DNA of 64,000 nt from Candidatus Altimarinota bacterium. Lineage in GTDB: Bacteria; Patescibacteriota; Gracilibacteria; CAIRYL01. Under the pieces are notes generated by a model. The model had not been told where the DNA came from, searched no databases, and saw nothing but the letters and a program-made list of their open reading frames with translations. This document shows positions 1 through 18,826 of the stretch, in pieces (position 1 is the stretch's first letter; the number at the start of each line of letters is the position of its first letter). The DNA is taken from contig OZ252287.1 of the NCBI GenBank assembly GCA_965250085.1, positions 128,001-192,000 of the forward strand, given 5' to 3'. A program made the position numbers and the translations under genes.

Positions 1-1796
1 AAATATATGTTCCTCTTGCCAAAAAACTCAATCTAGAAAAACTCAGACAACAATTGATCACCGAATGCTATAAAACTCTTTTTCCCGATATTCATTCACA
101 ACTGATCACTACACAAAAACAAAATGCTCGAAAAGCCAAGAATGCAAAAGGAAGAATAGAAAAGCTCCTTCAAAAACCAGAAGGAGATTTTGGCGATATA
201 GAAGTTCGTATTTTCCCCAAGATATATTTTTTTTCATCTGAAGAAACAGAAGAACATGTAGCTGCTTTGGAAATAGCCAAGACACATATTATCCAAATTG
301 TTCCCTCTCAAATAGATCAGTGTTACCAAACTCTATTTCTCCTTCATAAAAAATATACAGTTCAACCACATGCATTCAAGGATTACATTAGCAACCCAAA
401 AGAAAATGGATATCAAGCCCTTCATACCAGACTCGTTGACACCAAAGGGAATGTACTGAGTATTCAAATTTTGACGAAAGAAATGGCCTCTCTTGCCTGG
501 AAAGGGATTGCTGTCTACTGGAATGGAAAAAAAGATGCTCTCAGATACAAAAACATAAGAAAATTTCCTCTGCGCATTCGCTGGCTGGAAGAACTCACTA
601 AGTTTTCTGAAGAACAAAAAGAGCATGATCTGGACGAAATGGAAGAATATCTTCATGCAGACTTTCTTAAAAAACCAATTTTTGTAATTGATACATATGG
701 CAAAGCAATTGACCTCCCAGAAGGATCTACTGTACTTGATTTTCTCTATCGCCATTCTCCCGATCAAGCCGGGCGAACAAAAGAGGTATTTCTTAATAAA
801 TTGCCAGTTGATCTGAGTCACACTCTCAAGGACGGAGACCGAATAGAATTTAAATATGATGATTTACTCAGGGCTGATGTCTCTTGGCTTAACTTTGTAC
901 AGACCTATTCTGCACGAAAAAGTATTCAAGCAGATCTCGCCAAAACACCAAAACAAAAGAAGATCTCTATAGGAAAGACTCTCCTGCAAAATGAATTTGA
1001 TGCTGAGCATAAGGGAATGATCAGCACCTATCCACATAAAATGTGGAAGAGAGTATATGCATTTTTTCAAGTTGCTGATGGAGATGAACTTCTGGCACAT
1101 ATTGGATCTGGAAAAATACAAGCAAACAGGGTGTATGCGGAATTTTTTGAAAACAATGAAAAATCTACACACAGACATCAGAGATGTCGATATGTGATCG
1201 CCTTTGAATCATCAAAAAAGCTCACATCGTTTCTTTTCGAGAAAATACAAAAATATAAACTTACTTTGCACGAAATGCTTTTTCGCCATAGTAAAAATGG
1301 ATCACAGGCAATACTAGAAATAGAAGAGCCTTCTTCTGGAAAGATACAAAAATTTCTGCGAGAAATAAGGACACATGAAGCAGTAAAAAATATTCAAATG
1401 GTGACACCAGCATATAAAAAAATGTTTTTGAGTGTACTGTGGGCATCAGTAGCACTGCTTCTCGGAGTGTTTTTTCTCTTCATCAAAGAATTCGAAATTA
1501 TTCAATCGTCCACTACAGGATTTATGAAAAATATCATCACCTATGCTCCTTTTGTCATCTTGCTCATTGCCAATATGCTTAGTATTCGCACAATGCGTAA
1601 TTACTTAAGCTGGATGCGAAAAGACAGGACGTATGTGATCTTGGGGGTAGCTATAGATGTCGTGAGTATGACGGCTTTGATTCTTTTATTTCGATATCAC
1701 AACATCGAGTTCAGCATTCTTACGTTTTTGGGTTTGTTTTTGATTGGAATTTTTATAAATACCTATCAGTTCACAAGAGAAGAAAAATTTTCATAG
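1..1796 (+). CDS. RelA/SpoT homolog (5'-truncated by window): synthetase-like, TGS and ACT-like regions plus ~4 C-terminal TM helices
   Basis: Frame open from base 3 (IYVPLAKKLNL ~ EIYAPLAHRLG); KDYISNPKENGYQALHT; TGS motif LPEGSTVLDF; WLNFVQTYSARKSI; hydrophobic C-terminal ~125 aa. Confidence 0.85.
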   Translation, partial: IYVPLAKKLNLEKLRQQLITECYKTLFPDIHSQLITTQKQNARKAKNAKGRIEKLLQKPEGDFGDIEVRIFPKIYFFSSEETEEHVAALEIAKTHIIQIVPSQIDQCYQTLFLLHKKYTVQPHAFKDYISNPKENGYQALHTRLVDTKGNVLSIQILTKEMASLAWKGIAVYWNGKKDALRYKNIRKFPLRIRWLEELTKFSEEQKEHDLDEMEEYLHADFLKKPIFVIDTYGKAIDLPEGSTVLDFLYRHSPDQAGRTKEVFLNKLPVDLSHTLKDGDRIEFKYDDLLRADVSWLNFVQTYSARKSIQADLAKTPKQKKISIGKTLLQNEFDAEHKGMISTYPHKMWKRVYAFFQVADGDELLAHIGSGKIQANRVYAEFFENNEKSTHRHQRCRYVIAFESSKKLTSFLFEKIQKYKLTLHEMLFRHSKNGSQAILEIEEPSSGKIQKFLREIRTHEAVKNIQMVTPAYKKMFLSVLWASVALLLGVFFLFIKEFEIIQSSTTGFMKNIITYAPFVILLIANMLSIRTMRNYLSWMRKDRTYVILGVAIDVVSMTALILLFRYHNIEFSILTFLGLFLIGIFINTYQFTREEKFS

Positions 1797-1856
1797 AGAA
1801 AATATATTTGTCCTCTCCCTCTTTTTTGCTAGCATACTCTGCGAAAAGACACATGG

Positions 1857-1931
1857 TGCCCGGTCGCCAAGTGGTAAGGCAGAGGGCTTTGAACCCTCTA
1901 TTCGCAGGTTCGATCCCTGCCCGGGCAGCCA
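1857..1931 (+). tRNA. tRNA-Gln(TTG)
   Basis: Acceptor TGCCCGG/CCGGGCA, D arm with TGGTA, anticodon arm GAGGG-CTTTGAA-CCCTC, GGTTCGATCCC T loop, encoded CCA. Confidence 0.95.
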
Positions 1932-1994
1932 AATATATAATTTATATTTGTCAAATAAACAACCTAAAAAGAACTACAAGATATAAAAAGTAAC

Positions 1995-2023
1995 TTGACA
2001 AGGAATATACGAAAAGATACCAT
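1995..2023 (+). promoter_or_regulatory. sigma70-type promoter with no downstream + strand ORF
   Basis: TTGACA (1995-2000), 17-nt spacer, TACCAT (2018-2023). Confidence 0.6.
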
Positions 2024-2042
2024 TGGGAATAGATTCACCACA

Positions 2043-2083
2043 AAGAGCGTCCTTTAAGGTCCCGTCCTTACTGGGCTCTTTTT
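2043..2083 (+). terminator. Hairpin plus T run overlapping the NYN stop codon
   Basis: AAGAGC/GCTCTT outer stem, TAAGG/CCTTA inner stem, ends in TTTTT. Confidence 0.5.
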
Positions 2084-2568
2084 ATGTAATCTAATTTTTT
2101 CCTCGAACCTTCAATGGCTGTGATCTTCCCCTCCGCGGCCTTTGGAATCAAGGACGAATACTTTTTCAATCCTGGAACAAGAACCATTTCTAATTTATCT
2201 TTTTTATTCAAATATCTTATAAGGCATGCGAAATCACCATCTCCACTCACGATTACTGCTTTGTCGTATTCATTAAAATCTATCATAGCCTGCAAAACCA
2301 TTTCTGCATCCGTGTTGCCCTTTCTTTTCCCGTTTTCATACTTCAGTGTTTCCTTATGTACTAGAACGAATTCAGCCTTTTGTAAAGATTGATACAAGGA
2401 TTGATATCCTTCCACAAAGCCCATGAAAATATAAGCTACCTGAACTCCATATTTCTCTCTCAAATATACTCGGAATTTTTTATAATCCAATTTCCATCCT
2501 TGGTTTTTAATCGAGTAATATAAATTACTCTGATCTATAAATGCATAATTTGTAAGTGGCTTTTGCAT
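2068..2568 (-). CDS. NYN domain protein (LabA/DUF88, PIN-like RNase fold)
   Basis: AFIDQSNLY, KGNTDAEM, IVSGDGDF acidic PIN motifs. Confidence 0.9.
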   Translation of the reverse strand: MQKPLTNYAFIDQSNLYYSIKNQGWKLDYKKFRVYLREKYGVQVAYIFMGFVEGYQSLYQSLQKAEFVLVHKETLKYENGKRKGNTDAEMVLQAMIDFNEYDKAVIVSGDGDFACLIRYLNKKDKLEMVLVPGLKKYSSLIPKAAEGKITAIEGSRKKLDYIKRAQ

Positions 2569-2867
2569 TGTTTATTTTTACACATGCTCATTCTGATCTT
2601 TATCTTGAGAGAATAAAAGATTAAAAAGAGGTGCATAGTTTTCTTCTGGCATTTCTTCATCCGTCATATAAATGACGCAGTGGTCTGTTTCCACTAAGAT
2701 GTCCTTTTTTGAGGTTTCCATAAAATGGCAAGGTTACCACTATTTTATTTTTTCTACGAAATCGATTCATAAACATTCAGCATCTGAATCCACTCGATTT
2801 GAAACAAATACAGTTGGGGAAACCAACGAAAAACTAATAACATCTCTCTTTGGTTTCTAGTTTATTC

Positions 2868-2899
2868 AATAGGCTGGAGTAATATTACTCCAGCCTATT
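2868..2899. repeat. Perfect 32-bp palindrome
   Basis: AATAGGCTGGAGTAAT|ATTACTCCAGCCTATT, just after the stop of the IS-split gene. Confidence 0.9.
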
Positions 2900-3142: not shown

Positions 3143-4184
3143 CCCGCATTCTGTGGTGAAGTGCACCACTTGGGATAAAAAGATATTAGAGATTGTTATA
3201 GAAGTCAAAGACATGGGTGGGAGTTCTAAAGCCGAGAACTTTCATGGGAGTGTTGTTAAGAGTATCAACAAAGGATTGTAACTGGTTTTGAGAGAAATTC
3301 TTGAGGTCAGCTTTCTTAGGGACAAATTTTCTAAGTTTTCCAATGGCGTTTTCTACAGAGCCTTTTTGCCAAGAAGAGTAGGGGTCACAAAAATAAATAG
3401 GGATTCTTAAGTCTTTATATCTTGTGTTTTCTACACCGTTGTCCAAGGTAAGTGAGTATGCAGGGAGTTGGTGCAGAATGTCTCCAAATCCCTGCATGGA
3501 TTCTCTGAGCCGAGACACCTTCTTCACGAATATTTTACGAGAGAGTCGTTCTCTAACGATGACAAGAGTTTGTGGGGAAGCTTTCTTGGGTCTGCCCATG
3601 GTATCTCCTTCGTAGTGTCCAAATCTTTTCTTCTGGTTGATATGCTGAGGTCTTTGGGCAATAAACACTCTATCTTTGATGATTTCATGCTTTGATTTCT
3701 TCTTTCTCCGTTTACGCTTCCTATATCTCTTGCGATAAAGAAGAGGACATAGGTCTTGTCCGTGTGCACTGTAGAGATATGTATAGATGGCATCTTTCCC
3801 AATACGAACTCTCTTCTCCAAGTACAGTACTCCTGCAATCTTCTCTGGTGACCATTTTAACAACATCTTTTCTCGCATATACTTCTCTATCTCATCATCC
3901 TCACGTACCTTCATTCCTTGGTATTTACTAAATCTTCTTTTGTTCTGTGCTTTTTGATGAGCCTTACACGCATCGTATCCTCCTCTCTTCATCTTCCGCT
4001 TGAGCTCTCTGATGATTGTAGAGTGACTCCTGTTCATCGCTTTGGCTATCGATCTCATCGAATACCCTTTGGAGTGGAGTATTAAGAGTTCTTGTCTCTC
4101 GCTCTTACTGAAGTGTTCATAGTTGTTCATGCACCTAGAGTATTAAATTCTTCCGAGGTGGTGCACTTCAAACTCGAATTGAGG
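3143..4184 (-). mobile_element. IS30-family insertion sequence
   Basis: Imperfect terminal IRs sharing ATTC..TGAAGTGCACCAC; 3-bp flanking duplication AGC (3140-3142, 4185-4187). Confidence 0.9.
3186..4130 (-). CDS. IS30 family transposase
   Basis: N-terminal HTH, WSPEKIAG, FGHYEGDT, TLDNGVE, DPYSSWQKGSVEN. Confidence 0.95.
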   Translation of the reverse strand: MNNYEHFSKSERQELLILHSKGYSMRSIAKAMNRSHSTIIRELKRKMKRGGYDACKAHQKAQNKRRFSKYQGMKVREDDEIEKYMREKMLLKWSPEKIAGVLYLEKRVRIGKDAIYTYLYSAHGQDLCPLLYRKRYRKRKRRKKKSKHEIIKDRVFIAQRPQHINQKKRFGHYEGDTMGRPKKASPQTLVIVRERLSRKIFVKKVSRLRESMQGFGDILHQLPAYSLTLDNGVENTRYKDLRIPIYFCDPYSSWQKGSVENAIGKLRKFVPKKADLKNFSQNQLQSFVDTLNNTPMKVLGFRTPTHVFDFYNNL

Positions 4185-12472: not shown

Positions 12473-15400
12473 ATGCGAAAATTATTTTCTGTTCTCTGTT
12501 GTTTAATATTTCTTTCCGGACAAATCACTTTCCTTCCTCAAGTATCTGCTGAGGAAGTACTCGAATCATCGACTTCAATTTTTGCGGAAACAACAGACGA
12601 TCCCAATACAAAAGGAAAACCTGCTGGAAGTTCTGAAGAGCGTGATGTGATCCTTGATCCGGCACTATTAGGATCTCTGGAAAGCAAGGGGCAGGTCACA
12701 AAAGAAAAGGGTGAATCAGTGCTGATAGCTCCTTTGGAAGACGCTTTTCAAGAGAATACCGACACCTCTTCGCTTTCATCCGAATCCTTGTCGGCAAGTT
12801 CTTCCTCTTCTTCATCAGATCCGATGGATGCTGTTTCCAATGCTCCTTTGCCCGATGTAAATACTGATCCGCTCAAAAACATTGCAGGTGTGCAGGGAGA
12901 ATATAGCGTCAGTGAATTTACGGGAGATGTGCAATATTCGTACCCCCTCTTTATGCCTCCTGGCAGGAATGGTAGCTCTCCTTCTGTTACGCTCAGTTAC
13001 TCTGCTAGTAATAAAGAGGGCAATTCTGAACTGGGAACGGGATGGAATTTAGATCTTCCCAAAATCGAACGGTATTCTCGCACAGGAGTGGAAAATCTGT
13101 ATGCCAATAATAATTTTCTTTCTCCCTTTGCCGGTGGTAATGGTGAGCTTTCCATTGACTCTATTGATGCCAATGGACACGGGACGTATATCCCCAAAAT
13201 ACAAACAGGAGCGGTCTATCATGAATTCAAAGCAGACAACACTTGGGAGATTACTGATGCCGCAGGGGTGGTGTATCGATTTGGAACGGTATCAGATGCA
13301 CGAGAACAAAGTGATGATGGCGGTAGAATGTACACCTGGTATCTGACCGAAATAGAAGACACTAATGGCAACAAGATGATATATGAATATACCAAGAGCC
13401 AGGGGTCTGTATATCTGAAGCGTATACTCTATGGAAATGAAGCCCAGCCCTATGAAGTACGATTTGAACCCTATTTTTCCGGCACTCTTGAGCAGTTTGA
13501 TGTACTTCCGTCTTATTCTCGTCTTTTCCCAGTGGTGGAGCAAAAAGACTTATTGGACTCTGTAGAGGTTTTTGATCCGTTTTCAGGAGACAAGATCGTG
13601 TATGAACTTACTTATGATACTCAAGGAACCTTTGGCTCTTCCGAAAGCCTTTCGGGCACTACTGACTATCTTATCAGCATCCAGCAAAAAGGAGTGGCGG
13701 CTTCTGGTGTGGAAACCAGTTTGCCGCCGACCGAATTTGAATACGAGAGCTATGATGGGTCCCGATCATTTGACATTGTCTATCCGGATTTGAGTGATGA
13801 AAATGGCTATGACAACACGTATTTCGATGGAACGGAGGACAGCCCCGTTCCCATGTGGATTTTTGCTGATGAAACCGGAGATGGATGGGAAGACCTGGTC
13901 AGCAATGTAGTGCGATATAAGAAAATTAATGGCAGTTATCATCATTTGCCGTATGAACGCTTATTTGTTTCACAGGGAAATGGCGAATGGGTGGAAGATC
14001 CTGATTTTATGGCTTCGGAATCATACTGGGCATGGGAGTATAGGCCCCATGATATCCGGGATTATTTTCCACCCGGATACAGAGACAATAACGGAGATGT
14101 GACCGATCATCTCTGTATTCGGAAATATCATGGAAATCTGGGTCAAAAAGATGGTTTGAGTTGCTATAACGGCGAGCATGGGAATGAGATGAAAGTGTAC
14201 CCAAGAGATGAAGACTTCCAGTTTTTGGAACTCAACGCAGATGGGCATCCGGATGGATTTAAGTATGACCATAAACAAAATTATCACAACAACACCGATA
14301 ATTCCCTGTATAGAAATACCGGAACGGCGTTTGAACCGGAAACAAGTGCTCAGTGGAATATTCCGGATGATATCTTTTATGATGAAGGCAGTACACTGTT
14401 TGGAGATATCAATGGAGACGGACTGGATGATATGGTGCACTGGTTTCAGAAAGTGGATGAATCTTCCGTTCTGGTGGAAGAAACCAAGAGAGCCTACCTC
14501 AACACCGGAGAAGGTTGGCAAGATATCACTGCAGATATTTCACTGCCTGTTCCTATTCGCCATCGCAAATGTCAGAACGGAGTCAGTACCTGTGAAGTGA
14601 TTTCTGTGAAAAAAACCTTTACCTTTCTCGATGCCAACAGAGATGGACTGGTGGATCTCTTTCATCAAGGGAAAGTGCACCTGAATAATGGATACGGCTG
14701 GGAAAGCACTGTTTCGGAGCTGTACAACAGTTCATATGACTTTGATCCCAGTTTTCCCACGCTGAGCAGCTTTACAGATCTCAACAAAGACGGTGCTTTT
14801 GAACGCAAAAAGCCGGTTGGAAAAACATTTGCCAACAATAATGAGATCGTAGATCTTCCCGTGCTCACAAATGTTACAAGCCCTCAAGGAGGATTTGCCG
14901 AATTTGAATACACTCCTGCCTCGAGTTACACCAATGCCGATGGCAGTGCGGCGAATATTGAGCTCCCTATACCTCGTCTGACGTTATCTAAGCTTACAAC
15001 CGATGACGGAATGGGAAATACAAGTGAAACCAATTATGAATATGCCGGTGGAAAGATGTATCGCAATCATGTTTCTGAGCAAGAGCTTTTGGGATTTCAT
15101 ATGGTCACCAAAGCATTGCCGGATAATTCAAAAATTATTACAGAATATGAGCAAGGGAGTGCCTCACAAAACTTTGCTGGGAAAGGGTCTCTTACAAATC
15201 AGAAAATATACACTTCTTCTGGAGATCTTTTGCAGGAAACACAGAATTTTTATGACATTGAACCCCGCGGAACCAATAGTTACGAATCCCTCCTGGAAAC
15301 AAGTATCAATCTGACATATTCAGAACACAATCCTTCAAATTATAAAGCCACAGCCTCAGAATACACCTATGACCAGTATGGAAATATCATTCAGGCCATT

Positions 15401-18400
15401 GACTATGGAGAGGTGAATGTAGTGGACACAGCAGGCAACTTCACCGATATTGGCTCCGATACTCTCACCAGCAATATTGAATATGCAGAGAATGCGGCAG
15501 ATCATATTCTCTCTCTTCCTCAGAGACAGGAACTCCTGGATAATTCCGGAACGGTTATTGGTGAAAGCAAAATCTATTATGACAATCTGCCACTGGGTCA
15601 AGTGAGCATCGGCAATCGCACCAAGACGGAAACACTCGCTTGTACTGGTCAGGCATGCCTGACCCCTACGGTGACAACTCTTACAGAGTACAACTCCTAC
15701 GGTCTGCCGACAAAGGTGACCAATCCTCGAGGGTATGACACCAATATCACGTATGATTCTCAGAATCTCTTCCCAGAGACAATTACGAATGCCAAATTAC
15801 AAATTACAAATTACGAATACGATTATCTGTTTGGAATACCCGTGGAAGTGACCGATCCAAATGGAGCGAAGTCAATTACCGTGCTGGATTCTCTCGGACG
15901 AGTCACAGAAATCAAAGTCACTGATCCGAATAATACTGATACAGAAATCATCGCGAGCACCATTAACTACGACACTACATCAGTACCGAATAGTGTCACG
16001 ACGACGACATACACCCACACTCCTCCCCTCTTTCGCAAAGAGGGGCTGGGGGAGATTTCTGTAGAGGGAGTTATGTATCTCGATGGATTTGGAAGACTTA
16101 TTCAATCGCGGACTGAAGCAGAAGGGAGTGCACAGTATACAGTGCACAGTATACAGTATGATGATCGGGGGAATATGGACAAACAAACTCTTCCTGTCTT
16201 CCAGAGTGGAATCTCATATACAGCTTCATCAGGATCTGAAGTAGGGAGTACGTATACGTATGATGCTCTGAGCAGAGTGCTGAGTGAAATAACTCCAGTG
16301 GGAACGACTTCTACTGCGTATGATCAGTGGTCACAAACGGTGACTGATGCCAATGGACATCCAAAGGACTTTACTTCTGACGCTCGAGGAAATCTGACTG
16401 AGGTGACCGAACACTTGGACGGAACTCCATATGACACGAACTATGCCTATGATCAGCTGAACAATCTCATCACAATCACAGATGCCAAGGGAAACATCAG
16501 AAACTTCACATATGACCTCCTGGGAAGACGTATCAGCATGGAAGATTTGCATACAGCAAACGATGCAACTTTCGGACTGTGGACTTTTGACTATGATGAC
16601 AACAGCAATCTCATCACTCAAACCGATCCAAAGGATCAGGAAATTTCTTACACCTATGATGAACTCGATAGAGTCCTCACCGAATCAGCAAAAATTCCTC
16701 CGTCTTCCGTCTTCGAACTGCACACTTCATACGCCTATGACACCGGAACGTATGGCATTGGACGCCTTTCATCAATAGTGAGTCCCGCTGTGACCAAGAA
16801 CTACACGTATGACATCCTCGGTAGAGTTATAAATGAACAAAAAAAGATTCTCGTACGGATTGATGGCAATCAATCCCTACAAACTTTCGACTCGTACTTC
16901 ACGTACGATCTCGCCGGCAATCAGCTCAGTATCACCTATCCTGGTTCGACAGGCTCACCACAAGCGAACATGCTCGTGGAATACACCTACAACAACGCTG
17001 GCCTTCTGGAAGCTGTACAAAAGGATGGAGCAGACATCGTCACTAATCTCGACTACATCCCTGTGGGGCTGGTCGAGAAAATTGATTACGCCAATGGCGT
17101 CAGCACCACCAATACGTATGACATTGGCCAAATCTATCGATTGACCAATAAATCCACCCTCCTTCACCAAGGTTCCGGCGGGCAGGCCGTACATCAGGAT
17201 ATCAGCTACACTTTTGATCCTGTGGGAAACATCACCCAGATCACAGACACCTCAGAGACCAACGCTGCCAAGACTTCTACATTTACCTATGATGATCTGG
17301 ACAGGCTTCTTTCTGCAACCGTGAGCAATGCGGCCAATGGCGATAATTATGCGCGCAACTATACCTATGATATCATTGGCAACATGCTGAGCCATTCAGA
17401 AGCCGGCAGTTATGAATACGCTGGAGGCGACTCTGGGACCAGCTCAGGAGCAAACTCCAATCCTCATGCCGTGACCGATGTGGCAGGAGTGGCGTATAGC
17501 TATGATGATAATGGTAATCTCATATCAAATAACACTTGGACCCATGGTTGGGATTATAAAGATCGCTTGCTGAGCTCTACAGATGGAACAGCTACGGTGA
17601 ACTATACCTATGATGAAGGGGGAGCGAGGGTGAAGAAGGTGAATGCGACCAGTGGCAAAGAGACGGTGTATGTGAATGAATTTGTGGATATCGAGGATTC
17701 TGCTGTGAAGAATCATATCTACGCCGGAGGGATGAAAGTGGCCACCTATTCTGCTGGAATTGCCAGTGGCAGTGGGAGTACGTGTACGGTAGATCTGAGT
17801 ACATGTACAGGGGAAGGAGCAAGATCGCCGTTATGGGAGAATGAGACTTCTCTCAATGGAGCTATAACTGAAGCGCATTATTTAGAAACATATGGACAGA
17901 TGTGTGTGGTGATCTTGTCTGGTGGAGAACAGGTGGCATGGCCTGTAGCTCAGGAAGCAAGCTGGTGGTGTGGTGAAGTGAGTATCCCTGTCTATGAGAG
18001 TGATATAGTCTATCACCATGAAGATCACTTAACGGGATCAAATGTAGACACCGATGACACAGGAAACCTCATTCAGCTATTAGACTACTACCCCTATGGA
18101 GATACTAGACTCGATGAACAGTCATCATCGTACGCAAATGACTATAAGTTTACAGGGAAGGAGAAGGATGAGGATACAGGACTCTATTATTATGAGGCGA
18201 GGTATTATGATAGTGGGATTGGGAGGTTTATATCACTCGATCCCTGGTTTGGAGATATTTATGACCCGCAGAGTTTGAATAAGTATGCGTATGTGAGGAA
18301 TAATCCATTGAAGTATGTGGATGAGACGGGGGAGGTCTATCAAAAAATAGTAGACTGGGCTCTAAAGTGGGCTGCAAAAAAAACACTTCGAAAGGAAATT

Positions 18401-18826
18401 GAAGAAATGATCTTTCCTGAGCAAACGGCAGGAGAACCTGATCCTCGTATTCCTGAATCATCTTATTCTCAGGTTCAAACTATATTTAACTCAAATGGAT
18501 TACAGGCAAACTCCGTTCGAAGATTTTATGATGATGTTATTATCTCAGGGATCAGTGAAAACAATCAAAATTTCACAGTAAATGTTGGTCCAGAATCTAT
18601 AAGCTTATATATATCCTTCGAAGACTCTACAATTAGCTCTGCGGTAACCATTGACCTTACGAGCTCATTCCCTACAAGTGTAATGGAGAAAATTGATGAT
18701 GAGGGATCAGTTGCTAGACTGGAATTAGTTGTTCGTAGTAAACTTGAGAATCATTATAAAAGTATTAAGCCAAAAGAAGATGGAAAAGATGAAGAAAGTG
18801 AAACTGACAATGATTCAGGGGATTAA
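12473..18826 (+). CDS. Large RHS/YD-repeat polymorphic toxin (SpvB-like N-terminus, FG-GAP repeats, RHS core, variable CT)
   Basis: Signal peptide; PPGRNG..P.VTLSY, LGTGWNLDLP; DINGDGLDD; YD repeats; FTGKEKDEDTGLYYYEARYYD; NNPLKYVDETG. Confidence 0.93.
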   Translation: MRKLFSVLCCLIFLSGQITFLPQVSAEEVLESSTSIFAETTDDPNTKGKPAGSSEERDVILDPALLGSLESKGQVTKEKGESVLIAPLEDAFQENTDTSSLSSESLSASSSSSSSDPMDAVSNAPLPDVNTDPLKNIAGVQGEYSVSEFTGDVQYSYPLFMPPGRNGSSPSVTLSYSASNKEGNSELGTGWNLDLPKIERYSRTGVENLYANNNFLSPFAGGNGELSIDSIDANGHGTYIPKIQTGAVYHEFKADNTWEITDAAGVVYRFGTVSDAREQSDDGGRMYTWYLTEIEDTNGNKMIYEYTKSQGSVYLKRILYGNEAQPYEVRFEPYFSGTLEQFDVLPSYSRLFPVVEQKDLLDSVEVFDPFSGDKIVYELTYDTQGTFGSSESLSGTTDYLISIQQKGVAASGVETSLPPTEFEYESYDGSRSFDIVYPDLSDENGYDNTYFDGTEDSPVPMWIFADETGDGWEDLVSNVVRYKKINGSYHHLPYERLFVSQGNGEWVEDPDFMASESYWAWEYRPHDIRDYFPPGYRDNNGDVTDHLCIRKYHGNLGQKDGLSCYNGEHGNEMKVYPRDEDFQFLELNADGHPDGFKYDHKQNYHNNTDNSLYRNTGTAFEPETSAQWNIPDDIFYDEGSTLFGDINGDGLDDMVHWFQKVDESSVLVEETKRAYLNTGEGWQDITADISLPVPIRHRKCQNGVSTCEVISVKKTFTFLDANRDGLVDLFHQGKVHLNNGYGWESTVSELYNSSYDFDPSFPTLSSFTDLNKDGAFERKKPVGKTFANNNEIVDLPVLTNVTSPQGGFAEFEYTPASSYTNADGSAANIELPIPRLTLSKLTTDDGMGNTSETNYEYAGGKMYRNHVSEQELLGFHMVTKALPDNSKIITEYEQGSASQNFAGKGSLTNQKIYTSSGDLLQETQNFYDIEPRGTNSYESLLETSINLTYSEHNPSNYKATASEYTYDQYGNIIQAIDYGEVNVVDTAGNFTDIGSDTLTSNIEYAENAADHILSLPQRQELLDNSGTVIGESKIYYDNLPLGQVSIGNRTKTETLACTGQACLTPTVTTLTEYNSYGLPTKVTNPRGYDTNITYDSQNLFPETITNAKLQITNYEYDYLFGIPVEVTDPNGAKSITVLDSLGRVTEIKVTDPNNTDTEIIASTINYDTTSVPNSVTTTTYTHTPPLFRKEGLGEISVEGVMYLDGFGRLIQSRTEAEGSAQYTVHSIQYDDRGNMDKQTLPVFQSGISYTASSGSEVGSTYTYDALSRVLSEITPVGTTSTAYDQWSQTVTDANGHPKDFTSDARGNLTEVTEHLDGTPYDTNYAYDQLNNLITITDAKGNIRNFTYDLLGRRISMEDLHTANDATFGLWTFDYDDNSNLITQTDPKDQEISYTYDELDRVLTESAKIPPSSVFELHTSYAYDTGTYGIGRLSSIVSPAVTKNYTYDILGRVINEQKKILVRIDGNQSLQTFDSYFTYDLAGNQLSITYPGSTGSPQANMLVEYTYNNAGLLEAVQKDGADIVTNLDYIPVGLVEKIDYANGVSTTNTYDIGQIYRLTNKSTLLHQGSGGQAVHQDISYTFDPVGNITQITDTSETNAAKTSTFTYDDLDRLLSATVSNAANGDNYARNYTYDIIGNMLSHSEAGSYEYAGGDSGTSSGANSNPHAVTDVAGVAYSYDDNGNLISNNTWTHGWDYKDRLLSSTDGTATVNYTYDEGGARVKKVNATSGKETVYVNEFVDIEDSAVKNHIYAGGMKVATYSAGIASGSGSTCTVDLSTCTGEGARSPLWENETSLNGAITEAHYLETYGQMCVVILSGGEQVAWPVAQEASWWCGEVSIPVYESDIVYHHEDHLTGSNVDTDDTGNLIQLLDYYPYGDTRLDEQSSSYANDYKFTGKEKDEDTGLYYYEARYYDSGIGRFISLDPWFGDIYDPQSLNKYAYVRNNPLKYVDETGEVYQKIVDWALKWAAKKTLRKEIEEMIFPEQTAGEPDPRIPESSYSQVQTIFNSNGLQANSVRRFYDDVIISGISENNQNFTVNVGPESISLYISFEDSTISSAVTIDLTSSFPTSVMEKIDDEGSVARLELVVRSKLENHYKSIKPKEDGKDEESETDNDSGD
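15642..15669 (-). repeat. GTAG-type REP-like palindrome in frame within the RHS gene
   Basis: Perfect 18-bp GGTCAGGCATGCCTGACC preceded by GTAG on the minus strand. Confidence 0.75.
16021..16058 (+). repeat. GC-rich hairpin mini-element in frame within the RHS gene
   Basis: CCCCTCTTT-CGC-AAAGAGGGG plus GGGGGAGATTT tail; similar element at 26946-26982. Confidence 0.7.
16942..16964 (+). repeat. TTCGACAGGCTCA-core mini-element in frame (related copies at 19978-19994 and 21791-21810)
   Basis: Shared core TTCGRCMRGCTCA at three non-homologous positions. Confidence 0.75.

Follow-up and report, generated by a model that had tools for sequence, protein, structure and literature searches.

The DNA analyzed here (the window) is a stretch of 64,000 nucleotides from a Candidatus Altimarinota bacterium, corresponding to positions 128001-192000 of contig C1 in a single-contig genome of 1.37 Mb (G000). 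The window opens inside a gene for a long RelA/SpoT homolog (RSH), seen there as a plus-strand reading frame that is open at its 5' end (window 3-1796, 597 aa). The complete gene starts upstream of the window and encodes a protein of 764 aa, which we call P0001; residue n of P0001 corresponds to window nucleotides 3n-501 to 3n-499 (Table 1). A tRNA-Gln gene follows the stop codon. The genome reads well with translation table 11, and an in-frame TGA is present in the RSH genes of some relatives in the same class. The original prediction, made from the window alone, had described a membrane-anchored RSH with a degenerate synthetase site that acts as a hydrolase or as a sensor.

The domain order of P0001 is that of a long RSH. 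Pfam matched HD_4 (PF13328; residues 27-177, 141.6 bits against a cut-off of 27.2), RelA_SpoT (PF04607; residues 262-344, 61.6 bits against 27, a partial match to model positions 27-110 of 113) and TGS (30.4 bits against 22.2). The match to AH/RIS was weak and lay just below the cut-off (23.4 against 23.8 bits). TGS and helical regions were both modelled with high confidence by AlphaFold2, whose model of the whole protein, computed from a 42-sequence alignment, reached a pLDDT of 88.4 and a pTM of 0.78. Among PDB sequences the top phmmer match was B. subtilis Rel (6yxa, E 4.6e-82 over residues 8-559). The best Foldseek match of the model was full-length A. baumannii SpoT (7qpr, E 1.5e-30), and its N-terminal half superposed on Rel catalytic fragments with TM-scores of 0.79-0.86, normalised to the target. 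The proteobacterial SpoT equivalog NF008303 scored 312.4 bits, below its cut-off of 947.

Recovery of the upstream HD domain revealed that all three hydrolase motifs are intact: FHPL (H49-P50), LHDLLED (H73-D74, E77-D78) and DRLHN (D142-R143, H145-N146). In the synthetase domain we located the degenerate motifs that the original prediction had listed, IFPK (residues 237-240), THIIQIV (261-267) and SIQILT (320-325), whose counterparts in B. subtilis Rel are GRPKH, DLLAVR and EVQIRT. Proper alignment placed both catalytic acids among the replaced residues. DLLAVR became KTHIIQ, with D264 changed to K260 and R269 to Q265, and EVQIRT became SIQILT, with E324 changed to S320, R328 to L324 and Q326 kept. 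The ATP-binding segment GRPKHIYSIYRKM of B. subtilis Rel aligns to IFPK-IYFFSSEE, so that R241 is replaced by F, H244 is deleted, K251 is replaced by E and K243 is kept. In Rel enzymes, synthesis has been abolished by mutation of D264 and E324. The guanine-nucleotide side of the former synthetase site (FKDYISNPKENGYQALHT, which includes the stretch KDYISNPKENGYQALHT at 293-309 noted by the original prediction) is retained throughout the family. Judged from the alignment, the synthetase site of P0001 is dead yet still folded, a pseudo-SYNTH domain. A. baumannii SpoT has likewise lost the SYNTH-critical residues and is hydrolase-only (PMC9974481). Retention of the guanine-nucleotide block would fit a regulatory role as described for this enzyme, SpoTAb (PMC9974481).

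Table 1. Coordinates of the RSH gene, its domains and other features. Window positions count from the first nucleotide of the 64,000-nucleotide stretch; G000:C1 denotes the contig of the genome and L-numbers denote loci.
Feature	Residues of P0001	Position	Strand	Basis
Complete RSH gene (P0001, 764 aa)		G000:C1:127502-129796	+	
First 167 residues, including HD hydrolase domain	1-167	G000:C1:127502-128002, upstream of window	+	
3' portion of RSH gene, with stop codon at 1794-1796	168-764	window 1-1796	+	
Pseudo-synthetase domain	~196-345	window 87-536	+	Pfam, AlphaFold2
Degenerate ATP-binding motif VRIFPKIYFFSSEE	235-248	window 204-245	+	alignment to B. subtilis Rel
Degenerate Mg/catalytic Asp motif EIAKTHIIQIV	257-267	window 270-302	+	alignment to EIYDLLAVRIL
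Conserved block FKDYISNPKENGYQALHT	292-309	window 375-428	+	
Degenerate catalytic Glu motif SIQILT	320-325	window 459-476	+	alignment to EVQIRT
TGS domain	400-450	window 699-851	+	Pfam, AlphaFold2
Helical (AH) domain, no zinc-finger domain after it	465-561	window 894-1184	+	Pfam, alignment, AlphaFold2
ACT/RRM-like domain, predicted	560-634	window 1179-1403	+	AlphaFold2
Transmembrane helix 1, predicted	~640-660	window 1419-1481	+	Kyte-Doolittle, AlphaFold2
Transmembrane helix 2, predicted	~677-699	window 1530-1598	+	Kyte-Doolittle, AlphaFold2
Transmembrane helix 3, predicted	~713-733	window 1638-1700	+	Kyte-Doolittle, AlphaFold2
Transmembrane helix 4, predicted	~740-757	window 1719-1772	+	Kyte-Doolittle, AlphaFold2
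tRNA-Gln(TTG), starts 60 nt past RSH stop codon		window 1857-1931	+	
Second long RSH (soluble paralog), 725 aa from TTG start		G000:C1:706474-708648, outside window		
Weak HD_4 match inside 837-aa frame		G000:C1:550641-550856, outside window		
RSH-EamA forms without four-helix module		L010:1459-4209; L020:1444-4212; L026:1444-4239		
231-aa ORF immediately 5' of RSH gene		L001:236-931, upstream of window		
166-aa ORF downstream of tRNA-Gln		window 2068-2568	-	
1042-bp element (its 314-aa ORF on - strand)		window 3143-4184		
2117-aa ORF		window 12473-18826	+	

The C-terminal region departs from that of other long RSHs. The absence of a zinc-finger domain (ZFD), noted in the original prediction, holds in an alignment of 12 sequences: P0001 and the 10 other tailed relatives all show a gap at the place where the soluble paralog from the same genome carries a Cys-rich segment. 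The domain that follows the helical region is predicted to fold as beta-alpha-beta-beta-alpha-beta. Pfam found no ACT match in P0001 itself, and ACT_4 matches at the aligned position in two relatives (L014 and L019). The protein then ends in four hydrophobic segments, as had been read from the nucleotides around 1410-1796. These segments (residues 643-755) have Kyte-Doolittle values of 1.84-2.58 over 19 residues and coincide with four helices in the AlphaFold2 model (637-670, 674-701, 709-732 and 739-763; pLDDT of the block 75-89). Pfam matched neither this four-helix transmembrane (4TM) module nor an EamA domain (PF00892) in P0001. The protein terminates 7 residues beyond the fourth transmembrane (TM) helix, where its nearest relatives go on via a basic linker into an EamA domain. 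The nearby tRNA-Gln leaves no space for a remnant of such a domain behind the gene.

Lysine and arginine residues number four before TM1, five between TM2 and TM3, and two and none in the predicted outward loops, a distribution around the four helices that fits a cytoplasmic N-terminus. The outward-facing loops are predicted to be short (~16 and ~6 residues) and there is no extracytoplasmic domain. The tail would thus fit an N-in/C-in topology in which the enzyme faces the cytoplasm and almost nothing is exposed outside. The basic loop after TM2, NYLSWMRKDR, is predicted to be cytoplasmic, and its R706 is nearly invariant in the family. Together with an invariant Tyr that opens TM2 and further conserved F and L positions, this residue can be argued to make the tail more than a passive anchor.

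We wondered whether the tail is a genuine part of the protein and how widespread it is. Four public runs, each assembled on its own, gave contigs that extend across the tail and stop codon and past the tRNA-Gln without a single difference; three of the runs cover window 1-2897 and the fourth 1-2535. The four runs come from one sample, which is perhaps the source of the genome assembly. A profile of the ACT-like domain and the 4TM region, built from 10 sequences including P0001, was searched against 1.84 billion cluster representatives. It matched 59 of them at E <= 1e-3, 24 at <= 1e-10 and 6 at <= 1e-30; P0001, itself one of the profile's 10 building sequences, scored 212.5 bits (E 4.3e-58). 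Homologs with the same tail thus exist, and they fall into three length groups of 755-819 aa (19 proteins), 1080-1145 aa (21) and below 510 aa (19). All 40 long proteins carry the match at the C-terminal end of the RSH part, at about residues 555-800. Among ten of the short, tail-only matches that we inspected, nine come from contigs of 0.9-4.6 kb and the tenth from one of 16.7 kb; two of the ten cluster at 90% with members of 484-793 aa. We read the short proteins as gene fragments, though some might be stand-alone genes. Since the long proteins carry the tail fused and the short ones read as fragments, its existence as a separate gene in relatives is not borne out.

Searches with single sequences reached less far. 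A word-indexed search with residues 540-764 returned the query alone among 2717 candidates, which leaves the tail without a near relative, and an ESM Atlas search with the tail gave no usable match. A locus search with P0001 alone recovered 27 loci from many phyla, with matches that went no further than about query residue 558, all within the soluble part. Of 401 genomes sampled evenly from the phylum, 17 had a match to the tail profile at E <= 1e-3 and eight had one at <= 1e-8, seven of the latter belonging to the class of the window. When the 1097-aa relative P0008 was searched in 301 genomes of the class, at least 15 had frames of at least 1091 aa that matched through the EamA end. NCBI nr lists one 4TM member (P0018) under the name RelA/SpoT family protein, from Candidatus Gracilibacteria.

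RSH matches were present in 40 of the 41 relatives' genomes, many in frames with TM segments. By Pfam, the forms of about 1100 aa are RSH-4TM-EamA fusions, and EamA directly follows the 4TM module in 21 of the 40 full-length tail-profile matches. Besides P0001, 18 other full-length database matches have the 4TM-only architecture. In a second type of fusion (917-932 aa), the RSH is joined straight to an EamA-like domain of 10 TM helices without a 4TM module; one of the three exceeds the Pfam cut-off for EamA. One family of the class has many frames of 916-971 aa.

Strict regular expressions for the HD and synthetase motifs were applied to 62 full-length sequences, namely the 40 database matches of at least 700 aa and 22 frames from loci. 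None of the 28 transporter-fused forms kept the synthetase motif set: of 25 RSH-4TM-EamA proteins, 24 had HD motifs and no synthetase motifs and one had neither, and all three RSH-EamA proteins had HD motifs alone. The 21 RSH-4TM proteins were more varied, with both sets in seven, HD alone in ten (P0001 included), synthetase alone in two and neither in two. Nine of the 13 soluble forms kept both sets, three HD alone and one, the paralog encoded in the genome of P0001, synthetase alone. Two tailed proteins, P0046 (777 aa) and P0059 (755 aa), have lost the HD motifs and largely kept the synthetase motifs (EFQIQS and EFQILT); they could be membrane-anchored RelA-like forms.

A quick IQ-TREE phylogeny (LG+G4) of the first 600 residues in 62 rows took soluble Rel-type proteins as its root, although the seven chosen outgroup rows did not fall on one side of a branch. 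All TM-bearing forms fell into one clade (SH-aLRT 98), together with three forms without TM segments. This clade splits into a 4TM group that is mostly bifunctional-looking and a synthetase-dead group that holds every EamA fusion. P0001 belongs to the latter, next to P0008 (47% identity over 564 columns, SH-aLRT 97) and then P0005 (1102 aa, SH-aLRT 100), both of which carry EamA by Pfam. As P0001 stops past TM4 where these two continue, a secondary loss is suggested, and its lineage probably descends from an RSH-4TM-EamA fusion that lost its permease part. Tblastn with three fused EamA domains found no remnant in the genome below E 0.2. Two free-standing EamA genes are located away from the RSH gene. 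As to a substrate, NCBIfam gave only a sub-threshold match to 2A78.

Above cut-off, the genome has exactly two matches each to RelA_SpoT and HD_4, and these coincide on two genes, P0001 and a soluble paralog. The catalytic sites of the paralog are in the opposite state: its HD site is degenerate, with LLKLAE in place of HDxxED and ANRLYS in place of DRLHN, and its synthetase is intact (RVKDPYSIY, DLFAFR, EIQIRT), followed by TGS, a Cys-rich zinc finger and ACT. A further, weak HD_4 match of 23.7 bits is below cut-off and lies inside an 837-aa frame. When soluble paralogs from 14 genomes in the class were compared, HDxxED was absent from 13 (G036 being the exception) and ExQxR was kept in 11; four further loci gave no row and were left out of this count. 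The likeliest system is a soluble, presumably ribosome-controlled synthetase that is opposed by a membrane-bound hydrolase. Such a division would parallel that of RelA and SpoT[Hs] in Moraxellaceae (PMC9974481), with a separate origin.

The surroundings of the gene hold few further clues. Over 14 loci, synteny was confined to one genus, so that there is no conserved partner gene. The reading frame immediately 5' of the RSH gene may encode a protein similar to phosphoglycerate mutases of the histidine-phosphatase type. A 1042-bp element lies 1.3 kb downstream of the RSH gene. It is present in nine near-identical copies in the genome (99.6-100% identity) at about 8-fold depth, independent assemblies break at its ends, and it looks like a recently active insertion sequence, which, judging by the protein's appearance, might be of the IS30 family. 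Two other frames, of 166 and 2117 aa, lie further along the window. No RNA run containing the RSH gene is listed.

Long RSH enzymes are generally regarded as soluble and controlled by ribosomes or by partner proteins. The statement in the original prediction that they are soluble holds for the described families and fails in this class of bacteria. Full-text literature searches found no description of a membrane-anchored long RSH or of an RSH-EamA fusion. None is described in passages of the RSH censuses PMC3153485 and PMC7229694, the supplementary datasets of which may already list such a subfamily; the latter census has 13 long-RSH subfamilies, named in its supplement and in one figure. Likewise, passages of PMC12691689, PMC10118264, PMC9974481 and PMC7266159 contain none. 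The only overlap between EamA and ppGpp that we found in the literature is an orphan riboswitch subtype, of unknown ligand, upstream of EamA genes.

Among described systems, the best structural match to the model is Moraxellaceae SpoT[Hs] (7qpr), which also combines a competent HD domain and a retained pseudo-SYNTH domain with loss of the synthetase residues, and is paired with a synthetase-only RelA (PMC9974481). SpoTAb, however, is soluble and keeps ZFD and RRM (PMC9974481), whereas P0001 has no ZFD and four predicted TM helices. In a tree that contained no proteobacterial SpoT, the family of P0001 splits off from soluble Rel-type proteins of the same class, and we therefore regard it as a parallel invention and not as an ortholog of SpoT[Hs]. 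The combination, in one genome, of a hydrolase paralog and a ZFD-bearing paralog with a dead HD and an intact synthetase also resembles E. coli RelA and SpoT. Yet E. coli SpoT has weak synthetase activity and is soluble (in part after PMC9974481), while P0001 appears synthetase-dead and membrane-embedded.

With bifunctional Rel enzymes (B. subtilis 6yxa, S. equisimilis 1vj7) P0001 has in common the order HD-SYNTH-TGS-helical; these enzymes differ in being soluble, in binding ribosomes via ZFD and RRM and in their active synthetase. Seven tailed RSHs (P0011, P0014, P0018, P0041, P0044, P0045 and G025), a third of the 21 4TM forms, are of the same SH-aLRT 98 clade, with the ACT-4TM tail and no ZFD, and keep all synthetase motifs, unlike P0001 in its synthetase-dead sister clade with the EamA fusions. 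EamA/DMT permeases make up the C-terminal half of P0008 and P0005 and are absent from P0001. The small alarmone hydrolases Mesh1 and RelH have HD fold and motifs in common with P0001 but are soluble single-domain proteins, whereas P0001 retains the whole long-RSH scaffold.

Taken together, P0001 is likely to be a membrane-anchored hydrolase of (p)ppGpp with this single function, and the only such hydrolase of its cell. It would correspond in function to SpoT[Hs], with an independent origin within a class of ultra-small bacteria. We infer that its HD site hydrolyses the alarmone and that it makes none, so that P0001 would break down what the soluble RelA-like paralog produces and would no longer answer to ribosomes. 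The tail would place the hydrolase at the membrane and would probably regulate it. The part of the original prediction that proposed a hydrolase-only, anchored RSH is thus upheld by the sequence evidence.

Several points weigh against this interpretation. TIGR00691 (spoT_relA) scored 405.7 bits with P0001, short of the NCBI curated cut-off of 499.2, over model positions 1-554 of 687; the soluble paralog lies exactly at this cut-off. The hydrolase state of long RSHs depends on their C-terminal domains (PMC9974481), and P0001 is without a ZFD and is membrane-anchored. It is a singleton whose relatives are too distant for a measurement of selection, and it could be a remnant in decay, as it has no EamA part where its nearest relatives do. 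The search for hydrolases covered the HD_4 class, in which P0001 is the sole candidate of the genome, and ppGpp can also be degraded by enzymes of other kinds, such as the Nudix and GppA classes. Finally, an approximately unbiased (AU) test did not reject a grouping of the two EamA-bearing relatives that excludes P0001 (p = 0.164), for which reason we infer the loss of EamA and do not regard it as shown.

An additional layer of regulation could be laid over the membrane-anchored hydrolase. The tail may be a coupling module through which the hydrolase is gated by a DMT/EamA permease, one that relatives carry as a fusion and that might act on P0001 in trans, so that metabolite uptake switches alarmone breakdown on or off. 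We consider this possible, if unlikely. In its favour are the position of EamA right after the 4TM module in just over half of the full-length tail matches, the separate second type of fusion, the loss of synthetase motifs from 28 of 28 transporter-fused forms and the conserved Y, R, F and L residues of the tail, which speak against a mere anchor; the genome also has the two free-standing EamA genes. However, P0001 has no EamA domain itself, the free-standing genes are neither adjacent nor close to the fused type by tblastn, and NCBIfam gives only the sub-threshold 2A78 match as to a substrate. In this tentative, transceptor-like scheme, the exit from the stringent response would be wired to nutrient import by a hydrolase built into or docked on a permease, the flux through which gates (p)ppGpp breakdown. 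By the same speculation, P0001 might have shed the permease and kept the coupling module, and may act in trans with a free-standing permease. The family as a whole might, on this reading, be long RSHs that moved from ribosome control, having no ZFD, to membrane control.

It is improbable that the gene is instead a decaying, functionless remnant of an RSH-4TM-EamA gene truncated at the permease. Its nearest relatives are indeed ~330 residues longer than a protein that ends just past TM4, the multicopy insertion element lies close downstream and no RNA run contains the gene. But the frame of 764 codons is unbroken, all HD motifs are intact, and the gene end coincides with a clean domain boundary in an architecture that 18 other full-length matches have in common. 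Moreover, no other hydrolase candidate of the HD_4 class was found to oppose the intact synthetase-only paralog.

Quite improbable, too, is the proposal of the original prediction that envelope or host-contact signals are sensed by the tail and passed to the enzyme. The small genomes of this bacterial group (here 1.37 Mb) and the conservation of the tail would be in keeping with it, and sensing inside the membrane is conceivable. Nothing of any size faces outward, though, which leaves this sensing role unsupported; the conserved motif sits in a predicted cytoplasmic loop, and what relatives link to the tail is an EamA/DMT permease.

We regard it as very improbable that the HD domain acts on another substrate, such as (p)ppApp or another pyrophosphorylated nucleotide, or that P0001 is mainly an alarmone receptor. 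The superfamily does include solved HD hydrolases of other specificities, with the (p)ppApp hydrolase 7smg and MESH1 among the PDB matches of P0001, and the guanine-nucleotide side of the pseudo-synthetase is conserved. Against this, the whole N-terminal half, HD motifs included, aligns with long RSHs that hydrolyse ppGpp (E 4.6e-82), and the genome needs a ppGpp hydrolase against its synthetase-only paralog.

Persisting bifunctionality through a non-canonical synthetase site is highly improbable. K243, the FKDYI..NGYQALHT block and Q326 are retained, but the site has lost both catalytic acids and three basic residues to replacement and a deletion shortens the ATP motif by one residue, and in A. 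baumannii SpoT loss of the SYNTH-critical residues accompanies loss of synthesis (PMC9974481). An artificial junction of tail and RSH frame by misassembly or frameshift we reject, as the contigs of the four runs from one sample agree and the same junction recurs in 40 full-length database proteins.

P0001 thus appears, from its sequence and those of its relatives, to be a membrane-anchored, ZFD-less, hydrolase-only long RSH from a little-known family that is often fused to a DMT permease. Its clade would have given up the ribosome-docking zinc finger and acquired an integral membrane module, in most members with a fused permease. The motif states suggest an independent replay of the RelA/SpoT split, with transporter-fused forms that lack synthesis and a soluble paralog that lacks hydrolysis. 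The family may offer a natural system for how the C-terminal region tunes the HD site once it is fixed in the membrane, and a testable hypothesis for how the stringent response is terminated in organisms of almost unknown physiology. Such ultra-small bacteria depend on imported metabolites. If the unlikely transceptor-like scheme were true, the exit from the stringent response would be directly coupled to nutrient import in these bacteria.

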